In this document: in pieces, positions 1 to 15,792 of the stretch
How the letters are laid out: every line of letters starts with the position of its first letter
Position numbering within the stretch: the stretch's first letter is position 1
From: a virus
Taxonomy: Duplodnaviria; Caudoviricetes
Virus record (IMG/VR): IMGVR_UViG_3300032731_000305
Coordinates: 1-24,057 of that record
Length of the DNA stretch: 24,057 bases
Reading direction: 5' to 3' (one strand)
Notes under the pieces: generated by a model
Told to the model about the DNA's origin: nothing
Seen by the model: only the letters and a program-made list of their open reading frames with translations
Databases searched by the model: none
Position numbers and translations under genes: made by a program

Positions 1-1586
1 AAGCTGAATCCACCAGTCGTTGAAACATTAATTACCTTCATTTGAGGAATGAGGTTATCTGAACCACCAGAATAATTGCCTTCTATATGTAAGAGAGAAG
101 TTGGACTCTCCGTCCCAATGCCGACAGCATCAGCAGAATCATCAAGATAAATATATCCACTAGTTGTAGCTGTACTTCCTATTCTAACATCATTACTATC
201 CTTAATAACTAAAGCAGAATTTCCATCATTAACTACTGCTCCATTAGTAACAAAAGCAAGTGTTCCACTTGAAGGTGCTTGAACATAATTATATCCTGCT
301 CTTCTAAAAAGTAAGTGAGATTCAGCAGAACTTGTTCCAACTCTCGCTGTTCCATTAACATCCAACTTCGCCCCTGGCGCCGTCGTCCCGATGCCGACCT
401 TATCTCCAGAAGTATCTACATAAAGGACATTGGTATCCACAGCCAAGTTACCAGCTAAATTGAGGCCGCCGGTAGAAGCCATAAAGTCTGTTCCGGCATT
501 ACCGATATTGGTGATGATGCTGTTTTGCATATCCAGGTTGCCGCCGAAGTTTAGGCTTCCGTTGGTAACGGTTACGCCGCCGATGTATGTGTCGCCTTCG
601 ACGTAGAGCTTGTATGAGCCGGGGTCGGTAGTGCCGATACCCACATTGCCAGTTGTATCAATATATATCAGATTTTCTGTCCCGTTAGCACCTAATCCTA
701 GCCCTCTACCAGACTTTCCCAAAATACTAAACCTTGTTGGAGAGGCACCCCATGTTATCTGTCCTTGAGCACCATTCCCAAAAGTCATAGTATCTCCAAA
801 ATCAGACGTTCCATCAACTTCTAATTTATAGTTTGGCGCCGTCGTCCCGATGCCGACGTTGCCGCTATCCAATATGACCATCTTAGTCTGAGGCGAACCT
901 GTATTGTCTGTAATAAAATGAAAATCTCCTTTATTAGTTGTTCCTGTATATCTATAAGCGATTCTAGCGTCTGCATTATTACTTCTAAAATCAAGATTAG
1001 CATAAGAGTTTGTAGTTGTATTCGAGTTATAAATCAAAAAACCACTTCCTGCAGCTCCACCGCCTAGACCGTTACCAGTTTCAACAGCAGCATCACTACT
1101 ACTAAATTGGAGTTGTAAGTTTTTATTTGGCGCCGTTGTCCCGATGCCGACGTTGCCGCCACTAACAATAACCATATCAACACTATTATCAGAACCCAAA
1201 GCAACAGGATACCTTTGTAAATTAATTAAATTCATTGACCTTGCCCCGCCATATCCCGCTGCAGTGCTACCAGCTAAAAAGAATCCACCTACCAAAGAAC
1301 TTGAATCATTACCAAACTCTAATACCGCATAATCTGAAGAAGTCATTTCTCTAATATTTATTCTACCGTTATAAACAGATAATTTATCAGTAGGCGCCGT
1401 CGTTCCAATACCAACACTATCAGAAGTAGTGGTTAAATATACGTCTGTGCCGTCATCTGTCCAACCAGTAGCTGATTGAGCACCAGTTCTAACAGATTGA
1501 TAAATTTTAACCTTTTGGTCTCCCTGTGCAAAACATAGAGAGGTTGTAGCAAGAAATATAACTGCATATTTGAGAAATTTTTTCAT
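1..1586 (-). CDS. Fibre/adhesin-like protein with six VGIGT(T/E)xP repeats and an N-terminal signal peptide; partial, continues past the left edge
   Basis: Not in the ORF track because it has no stop in the window. I translated it by hand from ATG 1586: open for 528 codons, MKKFLKYAVIFLATTSLCFAQGDQK...SVGIGTTAP...GNVGIGTTAP...GNVGIGTTAP...GNVGIGTTDP...KVGIGTTAP...AVGIGTESP. It is Gly/Ser/Thr-rich, as beta-structured fibres are. Confidence 0.85.
   Translation of the reverse strand, partial: MKKFLKYAVIFLATTSLCFAQGDQKVKIYQSVRTGAQSATGWTDDGTDVYLTTTSDSVGIGTTAPTDKLSVYNGRINIREMTSSDYAVLEFGNDSSSLVGGFFLAGSTAAGYGGARSMNLINLQRYPVALGSDNSVDMVIVSGGNVGIGTTAPNKNLQLQFSSSDAAVETGNGLGGGAAGSGFLIYNSNTTTNSYANLDFRSNNADARIAYRYTGTTNKGDFHFITDNTGSPQTKMVILDSGNVGIGTTAPNYKLEVDGTSDFGDTMTFGNGAQGQITWGASPTRFSILGKSGRGLGLGANGTENLIYIDTTGNVGIGTTDPGSYKLYVEGDTYIGGVTVTNGSLNFGGNLDMQNSIITNIGNAGTDFMASTGGLNLAGNLAVDTNVLYVDTSGDKVGIGTTAPGAKLDVNGTARVGTSSAESHLLFRRAGYNYVQAPSSGTLAFVTNGAVVNDGNSALVIKDSNDVRIGSTATTSGYIYLDDSADAVGIGTESPTSLLHIEGNYSGGSDNLIPQMKVINVSTTGGFS
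375..398. repeat. Fibre module-boundary repeat copy (tggcgccgtcgtcccgatgccgac)
   Basis: 24/24 identical to 834-857; encodes VGIGTTAP on the minus strand. Confidence 0.9.
832..865. repeat. Fibre module-boundary repeat copy containing the 29-bp quasi-palindrome 835-863
   Basis: 33/34 identical to 1126-1159; encodes GNVGIGTTAP. Confidence 0.9.
1126..1159. repeat. Fibre module-boundary repeat copy
   Basis: 33/34 identical to 832-865. Weaker copies lie at 111-125, 621-650 and 1392-1415. Confidence 0.9.
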
Positions 1587-1587
1587 A

Positions 1588-1926
1588 CTATTTACCTTCT
1601 TGAACTATGGCGACAATTGAACCTGCCGCAGTAATACCCCAGATGTCGACATTTGAACTCCATTCACCATAGTATGTATCGTAGGGCTGTAGGGGTGTTC
1701 CTATGGTCGCACCAGTAGCAGTTACTGTTGAATCCCCTATATATAAGACAGTAGTGGCATCACTATTTGTAATCAACACATATTCCCTACCAGCCAACGG
1801 GGCAGTTGGTAATTTATCTCTGGTGGTATCAACGGTTACACTGGTGGTCTTAATTGAATACTTTAATCCAATAGCACTACCAACAACCAAAAAGAATATT
1901 AATAATCCACACAATATTTTTTTCAT
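1588..1926 (-). CDS. Small beta-rich virion-type protein with a predicted signal peptide
   Basis: MKK + hydrophobic ILCGLLIFFLVV + GSAIG, then a Thr/Gly-rich domain (VLITNSD..VLYIGDSTVT..GTPLQP..IWGI); lies in the structural operon with a TAATG overlap. Confidence 0.7.
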   Translation of the reverse strand: MKKILCGLLIFFLVVGSAIGLKYSIKTTSVTVDTTRDKLPTAPLAGREYVLITNSDATTVLYIGDSTVTATGATIGTPLQPYDTYYGEWSSNVDIWGITAAGSIVAIVQEGK

Positions 1927-2447
1927 TAATCACCTATAATAGAATTTAAAAAATCAAGATGTTGTTTTGTAATAGTAGTATCTTTACCTTGTCTTTCTTC
2001 AGCTAACAATTTTTCTTTTATATCTTGCCTTTTTTTTCTAACTTTTTCTCCGTTAGATTCTAAAGCCTTGTTTATTCTTTCTGCTTCATCTGCATTGGTC
2101 TTAGCCCAATTAGATTCATTCATCGGTCTTAGTAGTTCTCTCTTTAATTTATCTAAATTTGGTTCTTTCCCGCCAAGAAAAGAAACCAAAGAAATTTCCT
2201 TGTTCCATCTTAAAAATGAACTGAGTATTTCAAATAATTTATTGGAGTATTCTGTGTGGGAATTGTTGAGTTTTTTATGAATTTCTATTTCAAATCTTTC
2301 ATACTTTAAATCTAAATCTTCTAATCTTTTGTTATTTGTGGTAAGTAACTTCTCAATAGCACTGTTCAAATCTACCTTAATGCTCTCAATAGCACTGAAT
2401 AGGTCTGTTTTAATGCTGTCAATCTTTGCTACATACTTTTTGAACAT
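1926..2447 (-). CDS. Hypothetical coiled-coil protein
   Basis: 173 aa; AGGAG RBS upstream; N-terminal 11-aa repeat SIKTDLFSAIE/SIKVDLNSAIE; Leu/Glu/Lys-rich. Confidence 0.7.
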   Translation of the reverse strand: MFKKYVAKIDSIKTDLFSAIESIKVDLNSAIEKLLTTNNKRLEDLDLKYERFEIEIHKKLNNSHTEYSNKLFEILSSFLRWNKEISLVSFLGGKEPNLDKLKRELLRPMNESNWAKTNADEAERINKALESNGEKVRKKRQDIKEKLLAEERQGKDTTITKQHLDFLNSIIGD

Positions 2448-2456
2448 ACACTCCTC

Positions 2457-2771
2457 CTAATCCATAATTAATAATCGTCCAGTAAATAAATCATCAGAAG
2501 ACGCATTATAAACCTTTACGGTGTATATTCCCATCATAGGCAAGTTTACTTCATCATCTAATATACCCGTTGCTGTTTTCTCACGCCTTACGGTGTCATA
2601 TATAATATTGTCGTGGTCATCTATAAGTTGTAATTCAAAAGTGGTAACAGATGTATCGTGTGCAGCTAGATAAATCTGATTGCAAATACCACCCTGAATA
2701 TTAAGAGTATTTGTAGAAAAAGTATTACTCGCAGCTCCCTGGCTATTGATTTCAAATACGTGAATATCCAT
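2457..2771 (-). CDS. Hypothetical virion-associated protein
   Basis: Start reassigned to ATG 2771 (MDIHVFEIN), which has an AAGGAG RBS; beta-rich; lies in the structural operon. Confidence 0.65.
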   Translation of the reverse strand: MDIHVFEINSQGAASNTFSTNTLNIQGGICNQIYLAAHDTSVTTFELQLIDDHDNIIYDTVRREKTATGILDDEVNLPMMGIYTVKVYNASSDDLFTGRLLIMD

Positions 2772-2779
2772 AAATCTCC

Positions 2780-3061
2780 TTATCCCAAGAACAACCATCC
2801 TGTACAAGCAGTTACTGTCTTAGCACTTAAATGTTCCATCCAAACTCCACCCACATCGATTGATTGTAGATTTGCGTGGGGATGAAGCCCGCCAATATGT
2901 TGTATGGCTGTAGACCCATTAATGCTAAGAATAAAAGATGCAGCAGCAGTATCCACTTCATAAATTAAAATTCTTTTGACAAATAAGGGTTTATTATTAT
3001 TGATTACCCCCTCACTATCTATGTGATATATATTTCCTAAATTTGCAATTAAAGCTCCCAT
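2780..3061 (-). CDS. Hypothetical virion-associated protein
   Basis: 93 aa, GGAGG RBS, beta-strand-like composition, structural operon. Confidence 0.65.
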   Translation of the reverse strand: MGALIANLGNIYHIDSEGVINNNKPLFVKRILIYEVDTAAASFILSINGSTAIQHIGGLHPHANLQSIDVGGVWMEHLSAKTVTACTGWLFLG

Positions 3062-3071
3062 CTTCCTCCTC

Positions 3072-3317
3072 CTAGGTCATTTCCTGCCATATTCCTGACT
3101 TCAGAGTAGGGTAGGCAGACCTATCTTTCCTAGCTCCTGAAGCGTTTCTTTCTCCTTCTCCACCTATATTTTTAGGATGAGGAGCGGGTTCATCAAATTC
3201 TGTGGGATGAACCCACCACTTACCATCCTTAATTAGTTCTCGCTTAAAATACTTAAAGCCAGACCTTTCGGATTCCTTAAGAAGATTTTTTCTTTTATCT
3301 CTCGGAATTCTTCCCAT
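3072..3317 (-). CDS. Small conserved phage protein (SERSGFKY..REL..W.V...FDEP motif)
   Basis: Resembles the CDRxGFxY...EL...VC..C.D..P small proteins often seen after capsid genes, here without cysteines; TAATG overlap with the upstream gene. Confidence 0.6.
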   Translation of the reverse strand: MGRIPRDKRKNLLKESERSGFKYFKRELIKDGKWWVHPTEFDEPAPHPKNIGGEGERNASGARKDRSAYPTLKSGIWQEMT

Positions 3318-4009
3318 TAGATTAATCCTAATAGTGTAGGTGAATCAATAAACCAATTAGTTCCATCAAAAGTTGCGTTAATACTTGCACTTGTTGGTAT
3401 CACTAATGTTCTAGCTGAAGCATTTACAAATGTTCCGTGTGTTCCACCAGAACCACTACAGAAGTGTAAATCTGCTTTTCCTATATTTGCAACCGTTATT
3501 TTCTGACCAACCCTGCCATCTGATAATGCTTTAATAACAGTTTTGCCAGCTGAGTTCATTTGAATAAATGATAAACCAGTTGCAGAAAAACCACCAGTAG
3601 ATGTTCCCCACCAACGTGCATCTCCAGAACCAACCACCGTAGTTATGTCTTGAGCACTATCTGCTTTGGAACGAAATAGTTCATACCAAGATGAGTTGTG
3701 ATTAACAAATGCTGCAAATTCGTTTGTAGCTATTGGGGATGATGCTTGTTCAACAATATTAGCACCATCAAAATCTACTTCACCTGTTCCTAAATTTCCC
3801 AGCAATACAAGTTGTCCTTCACAACCATTGTCAAAATATGATATGGTTAATGAACCAGTGGTATCAGCCCATAGTAAACTATATAAAGATACATCTGGGG
3901 TGGTATCACCAAGTCCAATTAAACCAGCTGTTTTGTGTGTAAAATTATCAAATTTTCCTAACGCTAATTGATGAAAGCGACTAGGATTTACTCTGTTTAA
4001 ATTTCCCAT
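3317..4009 (-). CDS. Putative head decoration/fibre-like protein with two internal repeats
   Basis: Start reassigned to ATG 4009 (AGGAGG RBS). Repeated domain TISYFDNGCEGQLVLL...SSWYE and VIKALSDGRVGQKITV...TNWFI; directly downstream of the capsid gene. Confidence 0.6.
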   Translation of the reverse strand: MGNLNRVNPSRFHQLALGKFDNFTHKTAGLIGLGDTTPDVSLYSLLWADTTGSLTISYFDNGCEGQLVLLGNLGTGEVDFDGANIVEQASSPIATNEFAAFVNHNSSWYELFRSKADSAQDITTVVGSGDARWWGTSTGGFSATGLSFIQMNSAGKTVIKALSDGRVGQKITVANIGKADLHFCSGSGGTHGTFVNASARTLVIPTSASINATFDGTNWFIDSPTLLGLI

Positions 4010-4027
4010 TTTTCCTCCTAAGCGTGG

Positions 4028-4049
4028 GGTGGGGTAAACTACCCCCACC
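4028..4049 (-). promoter_or_regulatory. GC-rich hairpin between the capsid gene and the next gene (attenuator or mRNA stabiliser)
   Basis: ggtggggta-aac-taccccc-acc stem with one bulge. It has no U-tract on the minus strand, so it is not a classic intrinsic terminator for this operon. Confidence 0.45.
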
Positions 4050-4069
4050 TTTTCGCACTTAGATTATTG

Positions 4070-4094
4070 TAACTTGTTGTAATACAAAGACTTA
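4070..4094. promoter_or_regulatory. 25-bp dyad TAACTTGTTGTAATACAAAGACTTA (protein-binding or recombinase-type site)
   Basis: Self-complementary pattern TAAnTnnTTGTAnTACAAnnAnTTA; its reverse complement matches 12824-12848 at 18/25. Confidence 0.45.
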
Positions 4095-5015
4095 TCAGCC
4101 TCCGCCAGAATGATATAAATTTCCAGCGTGGGCACATTCAACGCTAAACCTAAAGCTACCCTTAAATTTTGCGTCACCGGTCTCAAAATCACCATCTTTG
4201 GCAAAAGAAAGTTTTCTTCTGTCAAAAGCGATGACACCAGACTCTCTATTTGCTGGTTTTGCTACTAATGTAAAAGCATCAGTGTCAGTATAATATGGAC
4301 TGACAACAAGCTGGAGATTTTTCTCCTTTAATACGTTAATAGCATTATTCGCTGTTTCAGGGTCGTAACCAGATTGTAAAAGCTCTTTTGCCTTCCACGC
4401 ATTGTTCGGATGAACAATGATGTATTTAGCTTTTAAAATTTGATACCTACCTGATTCGTCTTTTATTGTTTCGAAGTTATCTATACAAGTCTGTAATGCT
4501 GTAGCAGATAAATCTGCTGCTGGACTTAATAGATTACTCCACGTTCCACCTGTGATGTAAGTATGGCTTGCTGTTGCTAAAGCCAACGTATCAGCACCAG
4601 TATGATTTGTGGTAGATGTTATATTGTTTAACATATCCCAAACCAATAGTGCCTTTGTTTCTCTCGCAGCCCTACCAAGTTCTTCGGTTAAAGACCTCAT
4701 TGTCGTTGGAATATCAGGATATAAAGAGTCTTCAATTAACTCTTCTGATAACTTAATACCTAACGAATAAGTCTTATGTACGAATTTCTTTGTTGGACCT
4801 TGTAGAATTTCATCATAGGTTATTGCATCGCCTTCAGGCTTGTGAGGGAAAATCCCTAATCCACCTGCGTAGGCGCATTCCTCGTATGCTCTCTTTGATG
4901 TTCTCGCGCTAACAAAACCACTCCAACTAACTTCTGTAGAAGCGGGACGATAGCCTTGAATCATAAAGGCGAACAAACCAGGAACGACAGCCTTATTAAA
5001 AGTTGACCTGTTCAT
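4095..5015 (-). CDS. Major capsid protein (HK97 fold, Mu gpT-like family)
   Basis: 306 aa with motifs S.RAYEE...GLG....KPEG.AITYD, HKTYSLG..LSEELIED.LY, DG/T.L..ASH, D.DFETGD.KFK...RFS; lies after portal and scaffold. Confidence 0.9.
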   Translation of the reverse strand: MNRSTFNKAVVPGLFAFMIQGYRPASTEVSWSGFVSARTSKRAYEECAYAGGLGIFPHKPEGDAITYDEILQGPTKKFVHKTYSLGIKLSEELIEDSLYPDIPTTMRSLTEELGRAARETKALLVWDMLNNITSTTNHTGADTLALATASHTYITGGTWSNLLSPAADLSATALQTCIDNFETIKDESGRYQILKAKYIIVHPNNAWKAKELLQSGYDPETANNAINVLKEKNLQLVVSPYYTDTDAFTLVAKPANRESGVIAFDRRKLSFAKDGDFETGDAKFKGSFRFSVECAHAGNLYHSGGG

Positions 5016-5027
5016 GATTTATTCTCC

Positions 5028-5648
5028 TTATAATAATTCACCTAATTCAAGATAAGCACCTGCTCTACTGAATTGGTGGTCGTTAATTCTGACAATCCAT
5101 TTGGCATATGCGCCAAAAGCATTGTCTGGTTTATCCCATAACTTGACTAACTGCAAGTTAAGGTTTGAAAGCGGTGCTGCCATTACTGTAGTTGCTGAAC
5201 CGATATGTACTGTACTTATACCAGAGATTGTACTACCAGAAGCTGCGGTAACACAAAACGGTACTGTTCCTAACCCGACTGCTGCCTGTGTTAAAGCTGT
5301 TCCATCAGTTGTCTCTTGTATTAAAAAGAGTTGTTCTGGTGAATCTGCAATCAACACATTCATATAACCATTAGCATCCACTGATGCTGCTGCTGGATTC
5401 GCAGGTGCGTAACCACTTTCTGATACACTCAAAGGAGACCAATCGCCGCCTAAAATGCCGACAACTGAACCCAATAGAGCTTCACCAGCAGTGGTTCCGT
5501 CCATAACTGCTAATTCGGCATATCCGCCATTATTTAATGTTGCTGGCTGATACATAAAAACAGGTACGCCCGTTACGTGCTTGTATACTTGTGCTCTGAT
5601 ATAAGGATATATAGGTCGCAATCCACAGAATTTATTTGTGTTTGCCAT
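5028..5648 (-). CDS. Putative capsid cement/decoration protein
   Basis: MANTN..GLRP start, V.D.P..LF.IQ and W.VRIN.H motifs typical of the gene just before gpT-like capsid genes; AAGGAG RBS. Confidence 0.65.
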   Translation of the reverse strand: MANTNKFCGLRPIYPYIRAQVYKHVTGVPVFMYQPATLNNGGYAELAVMDGTTAGEALLGSVVGILGGDWSPLSVSESGYAPANPAAASVDANGYMNVLIADSPEQLFLIQETTDGTALTQAAVGLGTVPFCVTAASGSTISGISTVHIGSATTVMAAPLSNLNLQLVKLWDKPDNAFGAYAKWIVRINDHQFSRAGAYLELGELL

Positions 5649-5670
5649 TTACTTACTCCTTATTTGCTAC

Positions 5671-6351
5671 TTAAAAGTCCTTCCCCTCCGTGTAAACTTG
5701 TTCCCCCGTGGGAACATTATCGGAATCGGAAGCACTCTCTGTTGGTTTATAAAAACCTGATTGTCCTTTTGAGAGTTTTTCTTCTCCTTTAGCTAAATGA
5801 GCTTTTAAGATGGCTGTTGATTTTTCTCCTGGTGTCCTACGTATTCTTTCTGCCATTTCTAAGGGCATATACATAAGCACCGTGTCTCCTCTTTCAATAG
5901 CTCCACTATTGGAAAATAAACGGTCAGGTATGTTTTTAAAACTTAACCTGTTGATAAAAACCCAACCCTTCAAATCTATAGCATCATCAATAGCCCTTTT
6001 CTTTTTATTAATCCAACGAAAAGCAACTTTATTTTGATACTGGCGAAGTTCCTGTGGAAGAGATAATCTATGCTCACCAGGAGCATATTGTCTCTCTTTC
6101 ATAAGTAAAACTTCATCTAGAGTCTTAGGTTGTGATTTTATCCTGTCAGCAATGTAGGCATCATCCTGAGCCATTACTACGTGAAGTTCAGGTTTCTGTT
6201 GTTCTACAAAAGGAACAGCTTCTTTATTAATCTTTTCTACATATTCCTCTTTATCCGCAGGTTTGTTATCTGGGATTGTTTCAAACTCTCTCTCTACACG
6301 TTTTTTTGGGCTTTCTTCAAGTCCCTCGTCTTTTAACGGATTATTGTTCAT
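5671..6351 (-). CDS. Conserved phage head-module protein
   Basis: 226 aa; FRWIN...GWVF...GD.VLM.MP motif pattern; between scaffold and capsid genes; ATGA overlap. Confidence 0.65.
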   Translation of the reverse strand: MNNNPLKDEGLEESPKKRVEREFETIPDNKPADKEEYVEKINKEAVPFVEQQKPELHVVMAQDDAYIADRIKSQPKTLDEVLLMKERQYAPGEHRLSLPQELRQYQNKVAFRWINKKKRAIDDAIDLKGWVFINRLSFKNIPDRLFSNSGAIERGDTVLMYMPLEMAERIRRTPGEKSTAILKAHLAKGEEKLSKGQSGFYKPTESASDSDNVPTGEQVYTEGKDF

Positions 6352-7139
6352 AATTCAAGCCCTCCTCCTGCTGTTTTTTTCAGGGTTCTGGCATATTCCT
6401 CATAGGAAATGCCGTTTGTATCGCAAAACTCTCTCTGTTCCCGTGAAAGAATTACTTTATTGGATGGGGTTGGTCTTGATGTCCCCAAAGAAGTTGCATT
6501 TGCATTAGCTAAACGCTCACGCTCATGATTAACCGCCTTGGTTGTTCTCCCATCAATATCATATCCTTTAACACGGAGTACATCTTCCATTTCCCGCATA
6601 ACGAGAATTGGACCATCAGGAGATGTTCTCCATCTTGGATTTTTGTTCAATACATCAAACCAGATTTGTGTATGTTCTGAACTAGAGTCATTAAGCTCTG
6701 GATATTTAGTAACAACTTTTTGTTCATTTGTTTCTTGAACTTGTTTACGTTCTCTCTCCTGAGCTTCTTTTTGAATCTTTGCTTGGTCGGCTTTATAGAT
6801 ATTTTCTGCTTCTTGTTTTGCAATTTTGCGGAAAGTACCCTGCCAATCACTTTGAACATCTTTGTCAAAATCCTCTGGTTTTGTTTCTTCTACCTTTGGT
6901 TGAGAAGTCATTTGTTCCCTTAAATCATCAATTTCTTTCTGTTGTTTAGAGATGATTCTATCTTGAGCATAAACCTTGTTTTTAAAGGAATCCTGTTTTG
7001 GTTCCTCTTTGGCTTTTGGCTCAGGCTCTTTCTCTTCCTCTGGCACTACTGGAGTACCTTCTTCCTCTAAAGAAACCTCTACTCCACCATCTTCGATTTC
7101 TTTGGTCTCAGGTTGTTTATCCTGGTTTTTCTCTTCCAT
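6348..7139 (-). CDS. Putative capsid scaffolding protein
   Basis: Acidic disordered N-terminus, coiled coil, and C-terminal V.LS.EQRE.C...GISYEEYA motif; between portal and capsid. Confidence 0.75.
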   Translation of the reverse strand: MEEKNQDKQPETKEIEDGGVEVSLEEEGTPVVPEEEKEPEPKAKEEPKQDSFKNKVYAQDRIISKQQKEIDDLREQMTSQPKVEETKPEDFDKDVQSDWQGTFRKIAKQEAENIYKADQAKIQKEAQERERKQVQETNEQKVVTKYPELNDSSSEHTQIWFDVLNKNPRWRTSPDGPILVMREMEDVLRVKGYDIDGRTTKAVNHERERLANANATSLGTSRPTPSNKVILSREQREFCDTNGISYEEYARTLKKTAGGGLEL

Positions 7140-7159
7140 TTTATTCTCCTTTCCTCAAC

Positions 7160-7420
7160 TTAATAAGTTGGAATCTCCTCTTCGGGGACTATTAACTCCT
7201 TGATGTGGTCTTCTAAAATTATTTCTCTATATAAAAACCCGTCAATCCACCTTTGTGTGCCATAAGCTTCATCTAACTTATGTTGACGGAGCTGGACTAC
7301 TAGTTCCTTGTTCTTTTGTTCTAGCCATTTGCCCGACAGGTCCTGGAAGATTTTCCACCCCTTGTGTTCCTTGAATTCCTTCAGGTCCTTGAGCTGTTCC
7401 TGTTTGTAATCCTGGTCCAC
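7160..7420 (-). CDS. Small head-module protein overlapping the portal 3' end
   Basis: GTG start with a GGAGG RBS; 86 aa with L......GWK.F pattern; 143-bp out-of-frame overlap with the portal gene. Confidence 0.65.
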   Translation of the reverse strand: MDQDYKQEQLKDLKEFKEHKGWKIFQDLSGKWLEQKNKELVVQLRQHKLDEAYGTQRWIDGFLYREIILEDHIKELIVPEEEIPTY

Positions 7421-9452
7421 CTTTTCCTCCTAACTGTTGCATCGCCATCATCTGTTGCATCATCTGCATATGTTCCTGAACGTGAGATTGAGTATATTGC
7501 ATAATCTGTTCAATCATCTCAGGATTTACCACTGCTAATGTTGGCGATTGTAAGACCTTTTGATGCGTTTGAATGTGCATCATATGGTTTTCTACCATTG
7601 TCGGTCTTACCTTTTCAAAATCCCCCTGAAGTATTTTAGTATTTTCTTCTTCGGGAGAATCCAGGTCATTCATATCTGGTTCTGGTCCCAGATATTCTGT
7701 TGGTTCAAATCTATGGGATTTAAGTAAATTAGCCGTAGCCCTATAAATTTTAATGGGGTCTGAAGCGACCAAGGGATTTTGCATTAACATCTGATATAAA
7801 AATACTGCTAACTGACGTTCTGTATTTTGAGAACCCATAGAAGCGTCTTCAAGTATATAGGCATCTAATTCAGTAGATAATCCTTCTTCTGAAAGTTCAT
7901 TGCCGTGGAAAATAGGTTCTCCATCTTCACCTAATACCCTGGTTTCTAATCCTGGTGGTATATTCTTTTGGACTTGGTCTAAAATTTTTGTAAGTATCCG
8001 AGCACAACCCTCTCTTAATCTCTGAGCAGGTATGGCAAATCTCTGCTCTGAAGCCATAACAATAGCCTGTGTTCTTGTAGCTGTTCCAGAACCACCCACA
8101 ACCTCTGACTCCTTACCCATTACGTAAGAAGAGGCACCTGTAAGCCTTTCAATAAACTCCAGCACGGTCTTCATTGCAATAAATAATCTTTCTGTGGGTA
8201 AGTTAAAATCAGGTAGGTAAACATTCCTTTGTGGGTCAGGAACAGGTATTCCCTTGTTTGGGGCTAAAGTAATATTCTGTGGAACTAAACTTCCCGATGG
8301 GTCATAAAAGAATGGTCTAAGCACTCCCAGAGTATTAGCGTCAGTCAACTGATTGAATATAGCGTCTAATTCATCGGCTAAGGGCTTAACCATTTCCAAT
8401 ATGCCTAATCCTTCAAGTTCGTCAGGTCTATCTATAAGGTCGTTAATCTTTGTAAAATCCAATGGTCTCTTGCCATTCTTGGTAATATCTTTAATGGCAA
8501 CAGCACCTAAATAAATTCTATTGTCAGGGTCTATAAGAATTCTTAAATCTTCTGGAAAACCATCTCTGTCTATATCTATTTTTTTGTAAATCTTTAGGAC
8601 ATCTACTGGTGTATTTCTTAATTTGGCTTCTTTAATAATTTCTAAGTTTTCGTCTGTGGAATCGCTGTATTGGGCATTAAGGCGGTCTTCAATTTTAGAC
8701 TTTAGTTCTGTGGTGATGTTAACTACTTTTCCGTCTTTCTCCATCTCCTCCAAATCAGAATAAAGATAGCGAAGCTTAATAATAACGGGTTCATCATATA
8801 TACTTTTTTGGGCTTCTTGGAAATAAATGCTTTTTTGTGGTATAATTTCGCACTTAGTTTTTTCTTCTATCCTAAATTTCTTTTCTTTGTTTACGGATGG
8901 TGTCCCGTCCTGTTCAAATAACTGTAATCCAAACTCATCTGTTATGGGAGTTTCTTCGGTTTCTCCCCTGTCGTAGTATTTAATATCCCAACTTATTTCT
9001 GTAAGACAATCCCCAAATCCAGTAACTACCTTTGTCCATTTGTCAAAGAAGTTCTTCATACGTATGTGAACACGTATCCACCAATCCATAAACTTATTGA
9101 TTCGGTCTACCTTTTCTTTGTCGGTTCTTTCACCAGGCATCCAACGCACTAAGTCCTCATTCCAAATAGCAGAAAACATCCTTGAGTGAAGCATCTCTAA
9201 AATAGCCATAGCTATTTTCATAGAGCGATTAGAACAATTTCTCCAGGGAACTGATTTTGGTTTTCTATTACCATAAAACATATCTGTGAGTTCGTCTAAT
9301 TTAGAATCAAAAGTAAATGCTACCCCTTTTGAATCTACTCCATAGTCTCTGGCATTGCGAGCATCCTCTGCCCTTTTGAAGTCGTCAATACAAACTTCTA
9401 CAAGGAGTTTTTGCATATCTTCTTTTATATCTATTTGGATTGGGTTCATCAT
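7278..9452 (-). CDS. Portal protein (P22/podovirus-like, long form)
   Basis: 724 aa immediately downstream of the terminase genes; G.G..E...PL.DELD.I.NQ..D, ERLTG.S.Y.MG, TAT motifs; Gln/Met-rich tail. Confidence 0.9.
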   Translation of the reverse strand: MMNPIQIDIKEDMQKLLVEVCIDDFKRAEDARNARDYGVDSKGVAFTFDSKLDELTDMFYGNRKPKSVPWRNCSNRSMKIAMAILEMLHSRMFSAIWNEDLVRWMPGERTDKEKVDRINKFMDWWIRVHIRMKNFFDKWTKVVTGFGDCLTEISWDIKYYDRGETEETPITDEFGLQLFEQDGTPSVNKEKKFRIEEKTKCEIIPQKSIYFQEAQKSIYDEPVIIKLRYLYSDLEEMEKDGKVVNITTELKSKIEDRLNAQYSDSTDENLEIIKEAKLRNTPVDVLKIYKKIDIDRDGFPEDLRILIDPDNRIYLGAVAIKDITKNGKRPLDFTKINDLIDRPDELEGLGILEMVKPLADELDAIFNQLTDANTLGVLRPFFYDPSGSLVPQNITLAPNKGIPVPDPQRNVYLPDFNLPTERLFIAMKTVLEFIERLTGASSYVMGKESEVVGGSGTATRTQAIVMASEQRFAIPAQRLREGCARILTKILDQVQKNIPPGLETRVLGEDGEPIFHGNELSEEGLSTELDAYILEDASMGSQNTERQLAVFLYQMLMQNPLVASDPIKIYRATANLLKSHRFEPTEYLGPEPDMNDLDSPEEENTKILQGDFEKVRPTMVENHMMHIQTHQKVLQSPTLAVVNPEMIEQIMQYTQSHVQEHMQMMQQMMAMQQLGGKGGPGLQTGTAQGPEGIQGTQGVENLPGPVGQMARTKEQGTSSPAPST

Positions 9453-9458
9453 TTACTC

Positions 9459-9614
9459 CTATGCAGTTCCGTTTCTACGTTTAAACTTTGCGGGCGATTT
9501 TTCTTTACCACCACCATCTATTTTAGAACCATATTTTTTTGTCCATTTTTTTGCTAACTTCGGTTCATTCATCCATAAGTATCTTCTTTGCTTCTCACTG
9601 CGAAATGGGGACAT
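9459..9614 (-). CDS. Small basic phage protein (PFRSEKQRRYLW..EP.LAKKW family), 51 aa
   Basis: Below the ORF-track cutoff; hand translation MSPFRSEKQRRYLWMNEPKLAKKWTKKYG...; TAATG overlap and GGAGG RBS. Confidence 0.75.
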   Translation of the reverse strand: MSPFRSEKQRRYLWMNEPKLAKKWTKKYGSKIDGGGKEKSPAKFKRRNGTA

Positions 9615-10144
9615 TACGCCTCCTGCTCAATTACGTTAGTCTTCACAATCTTTTCTTCTACTTCTTTTAACTTTTCTCTTAGTTCTTCATCAGAGAGTGC
9701 ATTATACTGGTTAAACTGTTGGAAGGTTACACTACCACTACCAGCGCCTTCAACTTCTTCTCTGGCTTCCTTAAGGCACTTAAGAGATAGATTAACTTTC
9801 TCTCCACCCCTTAGTTCTTGAGAGATAGTATATAACTCATCTGCTCTTTCTAACCTGATTTTCTTCTGTGCTATGGGAACGTCGTTAATTGTCGCTAAAA
9901 AGCTGGTTCTTAATTTTTCTATGAGTTCTTTGTTTTCTTTTTTATATTGGCTTATAGAAGAAGGACTTACCTTTATATTATGTTCTTCTTTAATAAGACT
10001 GATAATCTCTTTGGGCTTTTTGTATTGAGCCAAAAGATTGCATATATACATCTTGGCATCAGGAACTACAAAAATCCTTTTCTTGTTTTCAGGTTCGTTT
10101 GTTTCAAGTTCACCTGTTTCTTGTTTTTTTCCCCACCACATCAT
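9614..10144 (-). CDS. terS: Putative terminase small subunit (DUF2280-like)
   Basis: HTH-like ICNLLAQYKKPKEII..IKEE..I.VS...I.QY followed by R..F......VPIA.K..RL..L...Y and L...K.LKEAREEV, as in DUF2280-type small terminases. Confidence 0.65.
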   Translation of the reverse strand: MMWWGKKQETGELETNEPENKKRIFVVPDAKMYICNLLAQYKKPKEIISLIKEEHNIKVSPSSISQYKKENKELIEKLRTSFLATINDVPIAQKKIRLERADELYTISQELRGGEKVNLSLKCLKEAREEVEGAGSGSVTFQQFNQYNALSDEELREKLKEVEEKIVKTNVIEQEA

Positions 10145-11568
10145 TAGTAAATTGCTCCTCTAAAATCTGGTTCATACATCTGTGGTCCATCAAACGTGGG
10201 ACCATCAGCACCTAAATATCTTATACAATCAGACCCGTGTTTATCTTTTGGTTTTACTTCTTCCTTGGGGTCTCTATCTGTCTGACCCTTCCATTCGTCG
10301 TGTTGTAGGTTTCTCATTGAGTGAATAGTCTTTGGGGCAAAACGCCTGTCAAAAAACAATTTAGGTCTATTGTTTATATCTATGGGTCTATCTGCGTTAT
10401 AGTGCAAGAGGCTCTTAACCCTCATATGACCCGTATCTTTATTGTCGTTAGCCTCTGTAAATACACACTTAAACTTTCTAAGTTCTTCTATAAGAGAAAT
10501 GTCCATCCCTATCTTCGCTGGTCTTCTGCCAAAGTTTGGGTCTATAAGGCGTTTTCTCATATTCCATCCAAAGTATTTTTCAGTCGCTAAAATATTGGCA
10601 GCTAGTTCCTGAGTGGAACAATGTATTATGTTTTCATAAATTACGTAAATATCGTCAGTGCGGTCTATCATCGCCCAAATAATCCAGTGTGGTTGCCTGT
10701 CGTGTGGGTCAAGAACACAGATAACTGGATAACCCTGCTCATACTTAAAATCATCAATAAGGTGAACATCGGAAAATTCTTTATATACACGACCCCTTAA
10801 ATGGAAGAACGCCCCGTGAAGACGAGTTTCCTTTTCATCATCGGTGAGCATATCTTCCCACCTTTGAATGTCCTCTTCATTGAGAATAGCGTTGCCGTGT
10901 GTATCAAACTTATTGTCTCTTATGTCAGCAGTAAAGACATCTATGTTTTTACCATCTGCCGAATCAACAATCTCTTCTTTCATCCAGGGCTCCACTAGGG
11001 GAGTAAAGGTAAGTAAGGTGTAACCCCCCCTATCTATCAATCCCCTTTGAGTGGCTATATACCTTGCCCTGTTAACTGGTTCATCACCCCAGAACAGGTC
11101 TAAATCCTGCCCCTCAAAAGCCATCTGGTCCTGTTCCATTGTGAGAAATTCTATAAACGAGCCGTCTCTCGTAGAGAGTTTAGTTACATAACCTTGTGGA
11201 GAACGCTTAATGCGTTTGATTTCTCCTGCGGGTAAATATGCACGTAACTTCGGTTCTATAACTGTATCTATCTTAAAAAACTTATCTGTTGCTATCCTAA
11301 TTTTAATTGGTCCTTTAAATCTGCGTTCTCTGGGAAACCAATCTGGATATTTTTTGGTAACGTGCCAAGCAACTTCCATCGCCCCCAAAGTCGTTTTTCC
11401 TGCCCTATTTCCACCTACGTAACAAATTATTTTTGCTTTTGATTGGTGGGCTTTTACCTGAACCTTGTTGGGTATGTAGAAATCCATACCCCGTTCTTTC
11501 TTGCGATTTTCTAATTCTTTTAGGAGCCTTTCTCTTTCTTGAAGTTGTTCGGCGGTGCTTTTTTTCAC
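10144..11568 (-). CDS. terL: Terminase large subunit
   Basis: Walker A GGNRAGKT, Walker B FWGDE, motif III LTFTP, RNase H-like nuclease LDPH...IDP...HGSDCIRY. Confidence 0.96.
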   Translation of the reverse strand: MKKSTAEQLQERERLLKELENRKKERGMDFYIPNKVQVKAHQSKAKIICYVGGNRAGKTTLGAMEVAWHVTKKYPDWFPRERRFKGPIKIRIATDKFFKIDTVIEPKLRAYLPAGEIKRIKRSPQGYVTKLSTRDGSFIEFLTMEQDQMAFEGQDLDLFWGDEPVNRARYIATQRGLIDRGGYTLLTFTPLVEPWMKEEIVDSADGKNIDVFTADIRDNKFDTHGNAILNEEDIQRWEDMLTDDEKETRLHGAFFHLRGRVYKEFSDVHLIDDFKYEQGYPVICVLDPHDRQPHWIIWAMIDRTDDIYVIYENIIHCSTQELAANILATEKYFGWNMRKRLIDPNFGRRPAKIGMDISLIEELRKFKCVFTEANDNKDTGHMRVKSLLHYNADRPIDINNRPKLFFDRRFAPKTIHSMRNLQHDEWKGQTDRDPKEEVKPKDKHGSDCIRYLGADGPTFDGPQMYEPDFRGAIY

Positions 11569-11675
11569 TTCTTTTCACGTTTGTGTTTTTTAGCTCCAAA
11601 CTGTAAATCATACTGCCTTTTCTCTTCGGGAGAATATCCCTTCCACGGGGAAGCACCCTTCTTTTTTTTAGCCAT
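11565..11675 (-). CDS. Small basic hypothetical protein, 36 aa
   Basis: AAGGAG RBS; MAKKKKGASPWKGYSPEEKRQYDLQFGAKKHKREKK; its TGA overlaps the TerL GTG start. Confidence 0.6.
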   Translation of the reverse strand: MAKKKKGASPWKGYSPEEKRQYDLQFGAKKHKREKK

Positions 11676-11704
11676 ATGTCTCCTTAACTTGTAGACAAGT
11701 TCCC

Positions 11705-11884
11705 TTACTTATAACCTATTGAACTTAAGTCATTAATACAATTCTGACATAAACCGTCTTTTACGGCATACCTTGAACAACCCGCCGACTTGCATACTTC
11801 CTGAATGGGTTCTTTAGATATCTCAACTACCACCTCTGGTGCTTTTACTACTTTCTCTTTCTTTACTTTCTTTTTAAGTCTCAT
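11705..11884 (-). CDS. Small zinc-finger protein, 59 aa
   Basis: GGAGG RBS; hand translation MRLKKKVKK...CKSAGC...DGLCQNC...GYK. Confidence 0.6.
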   Translation of the reverse strand: MRLKKKVKKEKVVKAPEVVVEISKEPIQEVCKSAGCSRYAVKDGLCQNCINDLSSIGYK

Positions 11885-11886
11885 AA

Positions 11887-12435
11887 TTACCTCCTTGCTT
11901 TAATCCTAAATGATGATGCCAAGTTGGGGTTTATAGTGCATATTCTATCTATTAACCTTATAAATAGATTACAAGGGTATGTAGAATATTCACCCTTTAC
12001 GCTTAATATTTTAAATCCGTGCTTACGGAGTAGTTCTTTAAGGGCACGTGGACAGGTTACTCGTAAGTGCCCACCTAATCTCTCAGTGCCCCAATTAAAT
12101 GGTTTTCCCACATTATGCCTAAAAGACACTTCATATGTGTGGGGTAAATACCCCGATAATACTAATAGTCTATTAAACCAAGCCAATAGGTTAGGTGTGG
12201 ATATTTCCAAAATGGTCTTGTCATCCATAACCCGATAGCACTTATCTAAGAAGTCATCTGGGTCTTCCAGGTGTTCTATGAGGTGGTTAACCAAGATTAC
12301 ATCCCACTCAACCCCAGGGAACTCTTCTTTGGTAACATCAAATCCATACCTCTTATCCAGGACTACTATCTTAGCTCCAGGATAAGCCTTTTGAGCTCTA
12401 ATGCCCAGATTTCCCCCAATATCAAGGATTTTCAA
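11887..12435 (-). CDS. Class I SAM-dependent methyltransferase (glycan-cluster type)
   Basis: ILDIGGNLG motif I, DVILVNHLIEHL.DP, ISTPN, H.R....L..LL...GF pattern. Confidence 0.85.
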   Translation of the reverse strand: MKILDIGGNLGIRAQKAYPGAKIVVLDKRYGFDVTKEEFPGVEWDVILVNHLIEHLEDPDDFLDKCYRVMDDKTILEISTPNLLAWFNRLLVLSGYLPHTYEVSFRHNVGKPFNWGTERLGGHLRVTCPRALKELLRKHGFKILSVKGEYSTYPCNLFIRLIDRICTINPNLASSFRIKARR

Positions 12436-12661
12436 ATTTTTCCTCTTCGTCTATAAGTTCTTCTAAATCCATATTTATGTGGTTCTCAAGTATAGAGTTA
12501 AGTCCTTTAAGGGTAGCCAAAGACCCCCTATAACGTATAGTATAGTCTTCGGTGTCCTTGGACTTATACTTGTGCCTGACCCCTACAAAGCAAGAGGCGT
12601 CAAAGCGCTTAAGTAGTTCCTGTATAAGGGTTTCTGTTTCTATTAGTTCAATATTCATCAT
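12422..12661 (-). CDS. Hypothetical protein
   Basis: 79-aa ORF overlapping the methyltransferase start; first gene of the late block. Confidence 0.6.
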   Translation of the reverse strand: MMNIELIETETLIQELLKRFDASCFVGVRHKYKSKDTEDYTIRYRGSLATLKGLNSILENHINMDLEELIDEEEKFENP

Positions 12662-12823
12662 AACTTAAAAAATATATTTATTAAGTATTTTATCTTTCTT
12701 ACTTTAGGGTGGCGACTTGAGCCTTTTCCCTCACAAAATCAATGTCCACCATTTCTAAATGTCCACTAAACAGTAGACATTTACCCTTCCTCACCTTGGG
12801 GGGGGGTTGGAAAAATAAGTACC

Positions 12824-12848
12824 TAAGTGTTTGTACAACATATACTTA
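12824..12848. promoter_or_regulatory. 25-bp dyad TAAGTGTTTGTACAACATATACTTA
   Basis: TAAGT..ACTTA outer arms and TGT..ACA inner arms; related to 4070-4094. Confidence 0.45.
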
Positions 12849-12966
12849 CTAACTAAATGAGTGTATTGGACAAACTTAACTATATGACTGGGTTGGATAT
12901 ATAATATATAAACCCACCCGAATTTACAATCCAACAGGGTGCCCTATGCCACCCTATACCCTTGTA

Positions 12967-12994
12967 TGAGCCTATAATATTTATTATGTTGAAT
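12967..12994 (+). other. dif: dif-like XerC/XerD recombination site
   Basis: TGAGCCTATAA-TATTTA-TTATGTTGAAT has the 11-6-11 layout. The right arm matches the E. coli XerD arm TTATGTTAAAT at 10/11; the left arm ends CCTATAA as in Firmicute-type dif. Confidence 0.75.
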
Positions 12995-13397
12995 TATCGT
13001 TCGGGACTCGTATGTGTATGAGTAGTATGTGGTTAGGGTGTGCTTACTCTTCAGGTAATATATGTATTGTTCTTAACTTGTACTTATCTACATTTATCTA
13101 TTGTCTTGTATTATATATAGTATTTAAGACATTTATCGGACATAACGGACATTCTTTCTTTTCTTTCTTCGCCTAATGGTATACTGATATTGAATGGTAT
13201 ATTGATTGGTTTAGTTATAGCTAAACTAGATGACTTATACCCTGAATGTAACAATGTAATAGGTAATCATTATATTATACCCTTTTTCTTTTCTTTTTTC
13301 GCTTTTTATGAATTGTTATACCTTAAAGGGTATATTCGGTTTAAAAGACATTTGTTCGGTTTATAGAACATTTACGTGTTTTAATTGTATCAGATTT

Positions 13398-13435
13398 TGA
13401 AGCGATTAAGATACCTAATCGCTTCAGTATCTTAA
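13398..13435. promoter_or_regulatory. Perfect 11-bp hairpin with an overlapping alternative 9-bp stem
   Basis: tgaagcgatta (13398-13408) pairs with taatcgcttca (13416-13426); ttaagatac (13406-13414) pairs with gtatcttaa (13427-13435). Confidence 0.5.
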
Positions 13436-13570
13436 AGGAGTTTGTAGACTGTTACCTATATATATATCTACTCCCTTTCTTTCTTTTCTTCAGCTTACCT
13501 TGTATCAGTATTTAGGAAAGCTAGTATTTTTTTTCATTTTTTTCCTTCAACCTCAAACAAAGATAAAAAT

Positions 13571-13927
13571 CTAAAAATCTTCCAGTAGTTTCTTATCTGC
13601 TGGCTGACTCCACTTGGGTTTAATTTTAAGGACTCGAAGGTCGCCGTTCAAATAGAATCCACCCCAAGCGTGAATCAGCCGATGACAATTACAACAAAGC
13701 AACATACATTTATAGAGTTCCTGCTTTGCCTTTTCAAATCCTTTTTTAGTTTGTGCATATTGTGCAATATTCTTTTCTTTTAATTTTGGGTTTAAGTGGT
13801 GAAAATCATAACAACACGTAGGATATACTCCACCACATAAAGCACACCTATTGCCCTTGAGTTCAACAAGAGCATCTTTATGTTTGCGTTGGGCGTTATA
13901 ACGCCTCTTTGCTTCTTTCTCATTCAT
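13571..13927 (-). CDS. HNH endonuclease
   Basis: CALCG...YDFHHLNP..K...C.LLC.NCHR.IH zinc-binding HNH signature. Confidence 0.9.
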   Translation of the reverse strand: MNEKEAKRRYNAQRKHKDALVELKGNRCALCGGVYPTCCYDFHHLNPKLKEKNIAQYAQTKKGFEKAKQELYKCMLLCCNCHRLIHAWGGFYLNGDLRVLKIKPKWSQPADKKLLEDF

Positions 13928-14062
13928 AGCGACCTTCCTTTTTTGTTTATTCGTACGCTAAAAGGATAACATATAGACCCCCCCATATTTGGGAAATTCA
14001 AACTTTTTTTTTAAATGTGTTGTAAGTCGTTGGTATATATAGCAAAAAAAAGAAGATAAAAC

Positions 14063-14090
14063 TTGACAAGTTATATAAATATGTTAAACT
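14063..14090 (+). promoter_or_regulatory. Strong sigma70-type promoter
   Basis: TTGACA (14063-14068), 16-bp spacer, extended -10 TG-T-TAAACT (14082-14090), A-rich UP-like tract upstream; heads the plus-strand gene run. Confidence 0.75.
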
Positions 14091-14130
14091 TAGAGTATGA
14101 AAGATAAATCTAACCAGAAAGGAGCAAACA

Positions 14131-14304
14131 ATGACTAAGGTAATCAAAGAAATAGAAAAGCAATTAGATGACAGGGTAGTTTCATATTCAACAGATGATT
14201 TGAGATTTATTCGTTTTAAGACTTCTAATCGTACTTGGTGGGCAAAATTGACAAAGACAGGAAAACTCAAAAAGTACTCAATAAGAATTGATGTATATAA
14301 TTAG
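14131..14304 (+). CDS. Hypothetical protein, 57 aa
   Basis: AAAGGAG RBS; hand translation MTKVIKEIEKQLDD...WWAKLTKTGKLKKYSIRIDVYN; first gene after the promoter. Confidence 0.7.
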   Translation: MTKVIKEIEKQLDDRVVSYSTDDLRFIRFKTSNRTWWAKLTKTGKLKKYSIRIDVYN

Positions 14305-14334
14305 GTTAACCCAATATAAACAAAGGGGGAAAGA

Positions 14335-14613
14335 ATGAAACTGAAAGAACGGATTGAGGGGATAATTAGAGAGAATACTAAATATGCTCTTATTTCTGGA
14401 GAGTGTCTTGGTGTTGATGAATCCCAAGCCACCACCGACATACTCAAGGCGTTTGGGGAGAGTTTGTCGAAGAAGAAAGACCCATATCCATTTCCAAACA
14501 AAGAATCTTTAATAAACTATAAAAATAATTATTATCAGTCTAGGTATGATGAAGGCTACAACCAAGCCATAGATGATATTAATGAGGAGATGTTTGAAAA
14601 GGAGCAACTATGA
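14335..14613 (+). CDS. Small phage protein, MxLKERIE paralogue family
   Basis: Shares LKERIE and QATTDILKAF with 16970-17218; GYNQA C-terminal motif. Confidence 0.75.
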   Translation: MKLKERIEGIIRENTKYALISGECLGVDESQATTDILKAFGESLSKKKDPYPFPNKESLINYKNNYYQSRYDEGYNQAIDDINEEMFEKEQL

Positions 14614-14948
14614 AATGGTACTGGATACCTATTACAGCATTGACTATCTTAATCGGCTCCTGTTTAATAGCTAATGCAGAACAGTTTACGGTTGATGAGG
14701 TAGTCAGGGCAATCGGCAGGGTTGAAAACAGCGAGAAATACCCCTATGGAATTAAAAGCATAGACGCAAGGGGTAAAAAAGAGGTTGCTCGTAAGATATG
14801 CAGACAATCAGTTATAAATGCTTATAAACGTTGGGATAAACAGGGCGACTTTTTGGAGAGTATGGGCCAGCGATACTGTCCGCCCAACTGGAAGAGATGG
14901 AGTGAAATGGTCAAGTATTGGCTTGTTAGATACAGAAAGGAGGATTAA
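14610..14948 (+). CDS. Secreted lysozyme/lytic-transglycosylase-like protein
   Basis: Signal peptide ending ANA/EQF; AI..VEN (candidate catalytic Glu), PYGI and RYCP...W...V motifs suggest a minimal lysozyme-like fold. Confidence 0.55.
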   Translation: MKWYWIPITALTILIGSCLIANAEQFTVDEVVRAIGRVENSEKYPYGIKSIDARGKKEVARKICRQSVINAYKRWDKQGDFLESMGQRYCPPNWKRWSEMVKYWLVRYRKED

Positions 14949-14950
14949 AA

Positions 14951-15013: not shown

Positions 15014-15025
15014 AAAGGAGTGAAA

Positions 15026-15253: not shown

Positions 15254-15280
15254 TCATAGAGAAGATGTTTGGAGGGAAAA

Positions 15281-15610: not shown

Positions 15611-15625
15611 GAAGGGGGGAATAAA

Positions 15626-15781: not shown

Positions 15782-15792
15782 GGGGGTGAGAT

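Follow-up and report, generated by a model that had tools for sequence, protein, structure and literature searches.

Modules of a phage fibre gene are exchanged, in frame, at a short peptide motif, VGIGT, for which one DNA spelling (the word) recurs in bacteria, archaea and phages. We propose that the word is a sequence-directed exchange site, cut near ATC/GGG by a predicted host nuclease of the Zn-ribbon/HTH/RecB type with a four-helix partner, and this proposal is given about an even chance. The window (the whole stretch of 24,057 nucleotides analysed) is a 24 kb freshwater phage contig from a virus record, in which the fibre gene is preceded by genes for terminase, portal and capsid. A relative of the capsid protein with 67% identity is named from an Omnitrophota assembly, which hints at the host and is the sole pointer to it. 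The fibre ORF matched a PHROG tail fibre (E 2e-22), the Bdellovibrio MAT fibre Bd2133 (8OND; E 8e-10) and Bd3182-type entries (E 0.002). Its kinship to solved MAT fibres and its repeated capping-loop motif suggest that it belongs to the MAT/S74 type. The sister allele on IMG/VR contig L190 has 995 amino acids and ends in an S74-like chaperone sequence, recognised by eye and without a Pfam match; PF13884 was matched by related cellular fibres. The single-sequence structure model of the fibre reached a pLDDT of 35. According to the available text of the paper on the MAT family, the peptide repeated here forms a structural capping loop that sits between beta-helix blocks, and a signal peptide and tip swapping are reported for the Bdellovibrio fibres (PMC10769870). 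The peptide repeat is therefore known, and the question is its DNA spelling. The features of the gene are as follows.

3..1586, minus strand: fibre gene, probably a MAT/S74-type trimeric beta-fibre; ORF of 528 amino acids, open at the contig end, with PHROG and Bd2133 matches
1527..1586, minus strand: probable signal peptide, with a basic start and a hydrophobic core, by eye
1398..1421, minus strand: motif 1, a poor copy differing at 8 of 24 positions; allele C departs at 1402
1152..1415, minus strand: module 1, 88 codons, interior GC3 0.21
1134..1157, minus strand: motif 2, 23 of 24 positions as in the common word
858..1151, minus strand: module 2, 98 codons, interior GC3 0.20
840..863, minus strand: motif 3, the exact 24-mer; departure point of alleles B (841-849) and D (845)
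835..863, no strand: imperfect dyad, present, not significant against GC-matched spellings
645..857, minus strand: module 3, 71 codons, interior GC3 0.24; replaced in alleles B, C and D
627..650, minus strand: motif 4, degenerate, differing at 6 of 24 positions; allele C rejoins at 641
399..644, minus strand: module 4, 82 codons, interior GC3 0.58, foreign composition
381..404, minus strand: motif 5, 21 of 24 positions, exact from V onward
126..398, minus strand: module 5, 91 codons, interior GC3 0.04
108..131, minus strand: motif 6, a partial copy differing at 8 of 24 positions, with 3 mismatches to the 19-nt consensus

An earlier note on this DNA had described six VGIGT motifs, and all of their coordinates were reproduced (starts at 1415, 1151, 857, 644, 398 and 125; spacings of 264, 294, 213, 246 and 273). 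The three near-identical DNA copies that it listed were found as well: 375-398 equals 834-857, and 832-865 matches 1126-1159 at 33 of 34 positions. One GC-rich 24-nt spelling is used by three of the six motifs. With up to three mismatches allowed, the 19-nt consensus matched four of the six, against 0.15 expected. The note had also called the rest of the gene AT-ending, which agrees with the GC3 of the whole gene (0.295) but not with module 4. Since the interior values run from 0.04 to 0.58, the gene is a compositional mosaic. The view of the earlier note that the modules are unrelated was upheld for nine of the ten pairs, which were no closer than shuffles; modules 2 and 3 are weakly alike, their score being reached by one of 200 shuffles. 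A possible second DNA connector, at NIGNAGTDF, occurred only in this phage among 383 ORFs.

The exchange was observed between near-identical phages. Contig L190 comes from the same phage, matching 8,659 of 8,660 positions over 841-9500 and 100% (rounded) over 841-20000. The match stops inside motif 3, where L190 has ATA for the ATC of the window, and other modules follow in the frame of 995 amino acids. Contigs from runs X5-X8 of another study hold alleles breaking at 1402, 841 and 845, allele B included. Allele C is identical down to 1402 in motif 1, continues with 409 other letters and rejoins module 4 (90% identical) at 641; its motifs 1 and 4 are 420 nt apart, which keeps the frame. Allele D follows the window over 845-1158 without a difference and then has another flank. 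A contig of run X6 holds 841-1151 with other flanks, and module 1 had no cover there. In runs from which the window may originate, its module order (1-862 and 850-1437 without differences) occurs together with allele B. Contig depths of 19.2 and 7.1 sum to the upstream depth of 26.5, which serves as a consistency check only, and stretches without cover were not counted as absence. The chance of three independent breaks falling inside motif windows is about 0.0015. Module breakpoints at the motif, as the earlier note had expected, were thus found inside motifs 1 and 3. Duplicated modules within cellular genomes mostly run from a point 6-9 nt ahead of one motif to a point 16-18 nt inside the following one. 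A scan of metagenomes returned six distant relatives and no new alleles. Across genomes, the best cases reached 92% over 84 nt for two Patescibacteria and about 78% when bacterial records were compared with archaeal ones, and no whole module common to the domains at high identity was seen. One older junction lies outside any motif, at 506-512: the tail of module 4 (384-512) is present at 90% in allele B, with other sequence before it.

The spelling of the motif is common to distant lineages. The exact 23-mer was found at 37 viral loci, and the exact 24-mer at 150 genome loci in 6 of the 64 parts of GTDB, from which about 1,300 stretches are estimated. By the titles of the records themselves, these loci come from Patescibacteria, Omnitrophota, Elusimicrobia, Woese-, Pace- and Aenigmarchaeota, Methanosarcinales and others. 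The 14-mer core was present in 24 of 201 Patescibacteria and in 24 of 151 genomes of the Omnitrophota sample; the reversed control matched 0 and 2 times. Among 52 non-seed copies whose flank GC3 was below 0.35, GTC was used 42 times against 6 expected, GGG 41 against 6 and ACG 37 against 4. The Leu six codons downstream, which is conserved to the same degree, stayed mostly at background (TTA 21 against 22 expected), with CTG (8 against 2) as an exception. Fixed silent positions between diverging flanks, which the earlier note had asked about, were supported, and against local codon use. In a viral sample picked by peptide only (245 VGIGT copies), 15 copies match seven or eight of the eight codons, where 0.05 were expected, and 59 match none. 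Most copies in it are non-canonical, so the word marks a subclass of fibres.

It could be supposed that only the peptide is selected and that the spelling comes from ancestry or codon bias. The capping-loop role given in the accessible part of PMC10769870 would favour this, as would the local codon use that most viral copies follow. Against it, Gly is written GGC at one position of the motif and GGG at another (enriched 2.65 and 2.78 times in the viral sample, the other codon not being enriched in either case). No fixed spelling is seen at conserved residues nearby or in other common peptides; for ERMRI, the most frequent of the latter, the control gave no main spelling (7 of 94). Copies of the word also exist off-frame. 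For the canonical class the explanation is refuted by the fixed silent codons, the unfixed control and the off-frame copies, and we consider it scarcely credible.

A much stronger alternative is plain microhomology recombination, in which the phage has no dedicated enzyme and unrelated modules have no homology other than the word. Crossing over in the word would be the work of general or phage recombination, folding would keep the joins at the capping loop, and exchange within a pool would fix the spelling. We take this to be a serious possibility, somewhat below an even chance. It agrees with the conservation in fibres, which is uniform across the eight silent positions and falls off gradually towards both ends. 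In fibres the "free" positions are about as conserved as the fixed ones, which is better explained by homology than by binding. The swap of allele C at motif 1, a poor copy with five mismatches to the 19-nt consensus, and the junction outside the motifs are on the same side. So is the window itself, which codes for an exonuclease (phrog_298) and NinG. Swapping of T-even adhesins at conserved motifs, as presented in the available text of PMC3157838, offers a precedent.

The position of the crossover bears on both explanations. Silent variants were inherited in two blocks, G-N-V-G-I and G-T-T. The correlations, taken over 273 copies centred by locus (29 whole-gene loci; the set overlaps with one of 376 copies), were 0.41-0.60 within the first block, 0.30-0.45 within the second and 0.00 between I and the next G. 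In the 376 copies the latter value was 0.20, the smallest neighbour value in 96% of bootstraps. Microhomology does not account well for a linkage over 12 nt in the left half (0.41) that is far above the linkage over 3 nt across the centre (0.00). The best single changepoint in 522 copies lies between +9 and +12 (log-likelihood -1334, against -1396 for the next). A model with a free changepoint is better than the fixed one (-1308 against -1334) with 12 more parameters. Among 43 junction pairs, not all of them independent, non-canonical codons common to a pair went with the left flank at positions one to five (5, 7, 6, 5 and 6 cases) and with the right flank at positions six to eight (4, 6 and 5 cases). 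The Ile codon differs in three of the 22 pairs sharing the left side. Sites whose left half had fully diverged were still swapped with only 9-14 matching bases remaining, which also speaks against microhomology. The bounds of single crossovers vary, in its favour. Allele B already differs at +9, which puts its crossover at +8 or further left; allele C parts at +14 and has the non-canonical left part of the window, so its crossover lies right of +12 and thus right of the proposed cut. No linkage break was seen in the unbiased viral set, and in a toy simulation of homology against a fixed cut the linkage arose in neither model, so that the simulation does not separate the two. A rule by which crossovers take the longest perfect stretch would also put the boundary near the middle. 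Sequence-directed exchange and microhomology recombination may both operate.

A candidate for the cutting enzyme was found beside fibre genes of some microbes. The protein has 430-520 amino acids and combines an IS1-type Zn ribbon and an HTH-like region with a PD-(D/E)XK domain at its C-terminus; it was seen downstream of four fibre genes. The IS1/IS1595 Zn ribbon and a Cas4-like match were present in four of four proteins, and PDDEXK_1 was matched. Identity between the archaeal and bacterial proteins is 45-51%. At least 3,482 relatives exist, named from Aenigmarchaeota, Parcubacteria, Omnitrophota and Endomicrobia. The structure model has a pLDDT of 81.7, and a profile search of the PDB returned only Zn ribbons (E 0.03-0.05). 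The usual partner is a four-helix-bundle gene. At 9 of 14 nuclease loci that had not been picked by position, a fibre gene precedes the nuclease on the same strand, no more than about 4 kb away, one of these fibre genes being truncated at the start of its contig. This count excludes L201 and the four discovery loci, and L217 was removed for a weak partial match inside a fibre ORF. At the remaining five loci the partner comes first in four, three of which are on contigs with 2 kb or less upstream. The linkage of the genes was observed, and the role of the nuclease in the exchange is predicted. The nuclease was present in 9 of 55 genomes selected by the word. In random samples of incomplete assemblies it was found in 3 of 24 Patescibacteria that carry the word and, for the Omnitrophota phylum, in 1 of 24 such genomes, this single positive being the centre of its sample. 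It was not found in G002, a single chromosome carrying the word, nor in the window, the sister phage or IMG/VR. Its absence from most word-bearing genomes is a further point for microhomology. The REP/RAYT Y1 transposase (PF01797) was matched in four of five nuclease-bearing genomes and three of five others, mostly far from the word, and not in the archaeon G022. RAYT was rejected as the enzyme, having no consistent linkage to the word.

An argument for a sequence-specific factor comes from copies outside the fibre frame. Nuclease genes carry the word off-frame and on both strands, with the consensus CAANNTCGGCANNGGGACG. The pattern CGGCANNGGGAC, which was picked after the hits were known, occurs 11 times in 7 of 16 nuclease genes, in several frames and on both strands, against 0.00 in codon shuffles. 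Five flanking positions that had not been searched agree with the fibre word in 12, 18, 15, 13 and 15 of 19 copies. A form unable to encode Ile was found in three of six nuclease-bearing Patescibacteria and in 3 of 195 others (p 3e-4), and it also occurs in G041 and G160 within unrelated genes. No off-frame copies were found in five nuclease-free genomes, whose 24 matches all have an Ile-coding centre. The base changed in allele B is at a free position. Microhomology leaves unexplained both the off-frame, opposite-strand and unrelated-gene copies in nuclease-bearing genomes and their absence from the five nuclease-free ones.

The same copies allow a different order of events. The word may be the end of a tiny mobile element of the nuclease pair that spreads in a homing-like manner, with fibre swapping as a by-product; fibre genes would have adopted the word because one frame reads NVGIGT. 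Two related nuclease loci differ by an in-frame insert of 69 nt that ends at the word and for which no target duplication was seen, and a second GGGAC or GTCCC often stands 25-35 nt ahead of off-fibre copies, both of which fit such an element. A homing nuclease destroys its target. Nuclease-bearing genomes keep up to 21 intact 14-mers, and words stand inside the nuclease gene too, which argues against the element, as does the lack of its upstream part at the fibre copies. In G057 and G202 the pair lies just before a C-terminal intein half in a fibre gene, in favour of the element, like the fractured genes in the accessible text of PMC2677866. Taken together, we regard an element origin as improbable. 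It is compatible with the exchange-site explanation, and the main difference is which came first.

A classical tyrosine or serine recombinase recognising the dyad, as in shufflons and integrons, was the reading of the earlier note. The dyad at 835-863 is present with its nine Watson-Crick pairs and one G-T pair. Its folding is modest (z-scores of -1.07 and -1.80; 29 and 12 of 200 shuffles fold equally well). Only 0.4% of 3,000 random back-translations have nine pairs, so it surpasses unrestricted spellings, but 8 of 128 GC-ending ones equal it, which places it in the top 6%. The arms also use positions that vary in the off-frame copies. For these two reasons the dyad is rejected as a recognised feature. 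Six tests gave no support for compensatory covariation of its silent bases: Val-Thr favours pairing (p 0.001), Gly-Gly goes the opposite way (p 2e-6), and a control pair gave p 0.04. The note had seen no recombinase in the window, and none of the families was matched among the window ORFs scanned. An invertase was found neither in the ORFs of the window or the sister phage nor near fibre genes in five genomes. Likewise, no match to a tyrosine or serine recombinase was found on a fibre-bearing contig or closer than about 60 kb to the fibre gene in these five. The 24-mer was on both strands in 0 of 150 genome loci, 205 of 207 copies lie in long or open frames, and no strand-changing joint was among the joints listed. 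In-frame sites do occur in fibre genes, for example rix, Min, Gin and Cin in the available text of PMC6109161. Crossovers cluster near the centre of the word, and some CPR fibres begin with integrase SAM-like or HTH_17/MerR domains, which would suit a recombinase. Nevertheless, the copies are all direct, only non-catalytic SAM domains were matched, and no catalytic recombinase was among the scanned fibre neighbours. An adjacent recombinase is largely refuted for the five genomes and the scanned neighbours, and the classical reading as a whole is very improbable.

We therefore return to the exchange-site explanation, whose steps may be pictured as follows. A host nuclease would break or nick the word near ATC/GGG and so start the exchange. 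The ends would be rejoined with any donor carrying the same word, which would serve as homology. Joins at the capping loop would stay in frame, and since the peptide is a capping loop they should keep trimer folding, which we infer for the window protein. Modules ended by the consensus would spread best and keep the spelling uniform. The phage would borrow the enzyme from its host, none being encoded in the sequenced part. The likely purpose is a changed binding of the fibre. More tentatively, and short of an even chance, the 19-24 nt word may be a universal fibre connector in Patescibacteria, DPANN, Omnitrophota and phages, where the nuclease and an Avd-like helper would cut and cassettes would pass between domains without a recombinase.

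These results bear on the question of how ultra-small symbionts, predators and their phages vary their adhesins. If the proposal is true, a single in-frame word makes one pool of interchangeable fibre blocks for bacteria, archaea and phages, and the common word would explain why assemblies break at fibre genes. If the nuclease drives the exchange, this is a new type of programmed gene shuffling; if it does not, a clear case of recombination fixing silent sites across domains is still obtained. With co-occurring alleles, a mapped crossover zone, a 19-nt consensus and a candidate enzyme in hand, the proposal is directly testable in vitro.

No description of the DNA word or of the nuclease pair was found in the literature searched, which covered few subscription papers. 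Integrons draw cassette-sized units from a cross-lineage pool through directly oriented attC sites, which form hairpins and need an integrase and attI. By these general features the present case differs, since no integrase was found near the fibre genes, the hairpin is weak instead of long and the sites are contained in a single reading frame. Fractured genes with free-standing homing endonucleases, as far as the available text goes (Dassa et al. 2009, PMC2677866), are alike in the intein half beside the pair, seen here at two loci. A nuclease with a DNA-binding domain next to its presumed target gene was found at the 9 of 14 loci and not in the window. Unlike those enzymes, the candidate is RecB/Cas4-like with an IS1-type Zn ribbon and not Vsr-like, its presumed target is kept in many copies, and its own allele does not lack an intact target. 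The Bdellovibrio MAT fibres and S74-type phage fibres are of the same protein family, and the repeated peptide matches their capping-loop consensus; the accessible text of that paper does not mention DNA-level conservation or crossover sites, and "recombination" appears there in the methods only (Caulton et al. 2024, PMC10769870).

The fibre shufflons Min, Gin, Cin and Rin likewise have short in-frame crossover sites that alter a receptor-binding protein; according to the available part of their description, they depend on a neighbouring invertase, on sites in inverted orientation and on silent tip cassettes (PMC6109161). In the present gene the crossover also falls inside a short in-frame site. 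Unlike in shufflons, the sites have direct orientation, foreign DNA takes the place of internal modules, and neither an invertase nor inverted sites were seen. Swapping at conserved motifs of T-even tail-fibre adhesins was reportedly described by Tetart in 1998. In the accessible text on T-even gp37/gp38, variable segments likewise stand between conserved glycine-rich motifs, exchanges fall in or near these motifs and the modules come from a common library; the swapping concerns one phage superfamily and is ascribed to general recombination (PMC3157838). Breakpoints within or near conserved motifs between variable segments were found here as well. We argue that the narrow crossover zone and the off-frame copies speak against the absence of a sequence-specific factor. 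In contrast to the T-even case, one exact spelling here extends over bacteria, archaea and phages, with off-frame copies and linkage to a nuclease gene.

The word, the GC-rich 24-nt spelling of the VGIGT linker, occurs in unrelated genes of genomes G041 and G160 (L407-L413), mostly on the non-coding strand. GGGAC or GTCCC is often located 25-35 nt upstream of these copies outside fibre genes. Such copies with their upstream motif could constitute a small insertion element. Among the genome loci L194-L406, two alternative half-sites recur: a left one, GGG AAT GTG GGG ATT, and a right one, GGC ACC/ACT ACC/ACT. In both of them, the fixed positions of the word are altered and CpG is lost. They are possibly locked sites. 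Half a word was also found at the start of two short orphan ORFs of the archaeon GW2011_AR5, followed by a copy of a terminal fibre module.

L361:12593-13018 and 16462-16731, orphan ORFs of GW2011_AR5

The candidate nuclease and its four-helix partner are followed at three loci by an intein half inside a fibre gene.

L395:2781-4979, L396:4611-6638 and L352:10254-15703, nuclease pair, then intein half

In a shorter nuclease subclass (L391, L385, L427, and L428), the four-helix gene precedes the nuclease gene. The two genes scanned contained no word copy, and a fibre gene was absent from the stretch in view. Giant Patescibacteria fibres carry DNA-binding domains of non-catalytic type at the N-terminus (integrase SAM-like, MerR, and HTH_17), and others have free-standing HTH_17 genes upstream.

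L356:5844-6743, L368:16360-18402, L369:1804-2703, L373, L376 and L378, fibres with DNA-binding domains or upstream HTH_17 genes

In the window, the fibre and the 112-aa product of the preceding gene have signal-peptide-like N-termini, which is unusual among virion proteins. The phage fibre may be exported or displayed on the host surface.

1527-1586, signal-peptide-like start, fibre
1867-1926, signal-peptide-like start, 112-aa gene before the fibre

In addition to the fibre gene, a small-ORF region looks like a second cassette assembly with common boundary sequences. Its ORFs share repeats of 26-53 nt at their starts and ends (families D6-D10, D12, and I1-I3), with the peptides MxLKERIEEI and MKPEKELR.

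14322-14460, 16975-17230, 17873-17907 and 18068-18954, both strands, repeat-bordered small ORFs
11887-12435, 16029-16973, 20229-20906 and 23072-23686, genes for two methyltransferases, one glycosyltransferase of family 2 and one protein with pentapeptide repeats
12662-13570, AT-rich stretch, roughly 0.9 kb, no long ORF, G run near 12800
23965-24057, contig end, three copies of a 27-nt repeat with 33-nt spacing

The ORF-poor stretch is a possible origin or genome end. The 27-nt repeat trio is either an effect of the assembly end or iteron-like.
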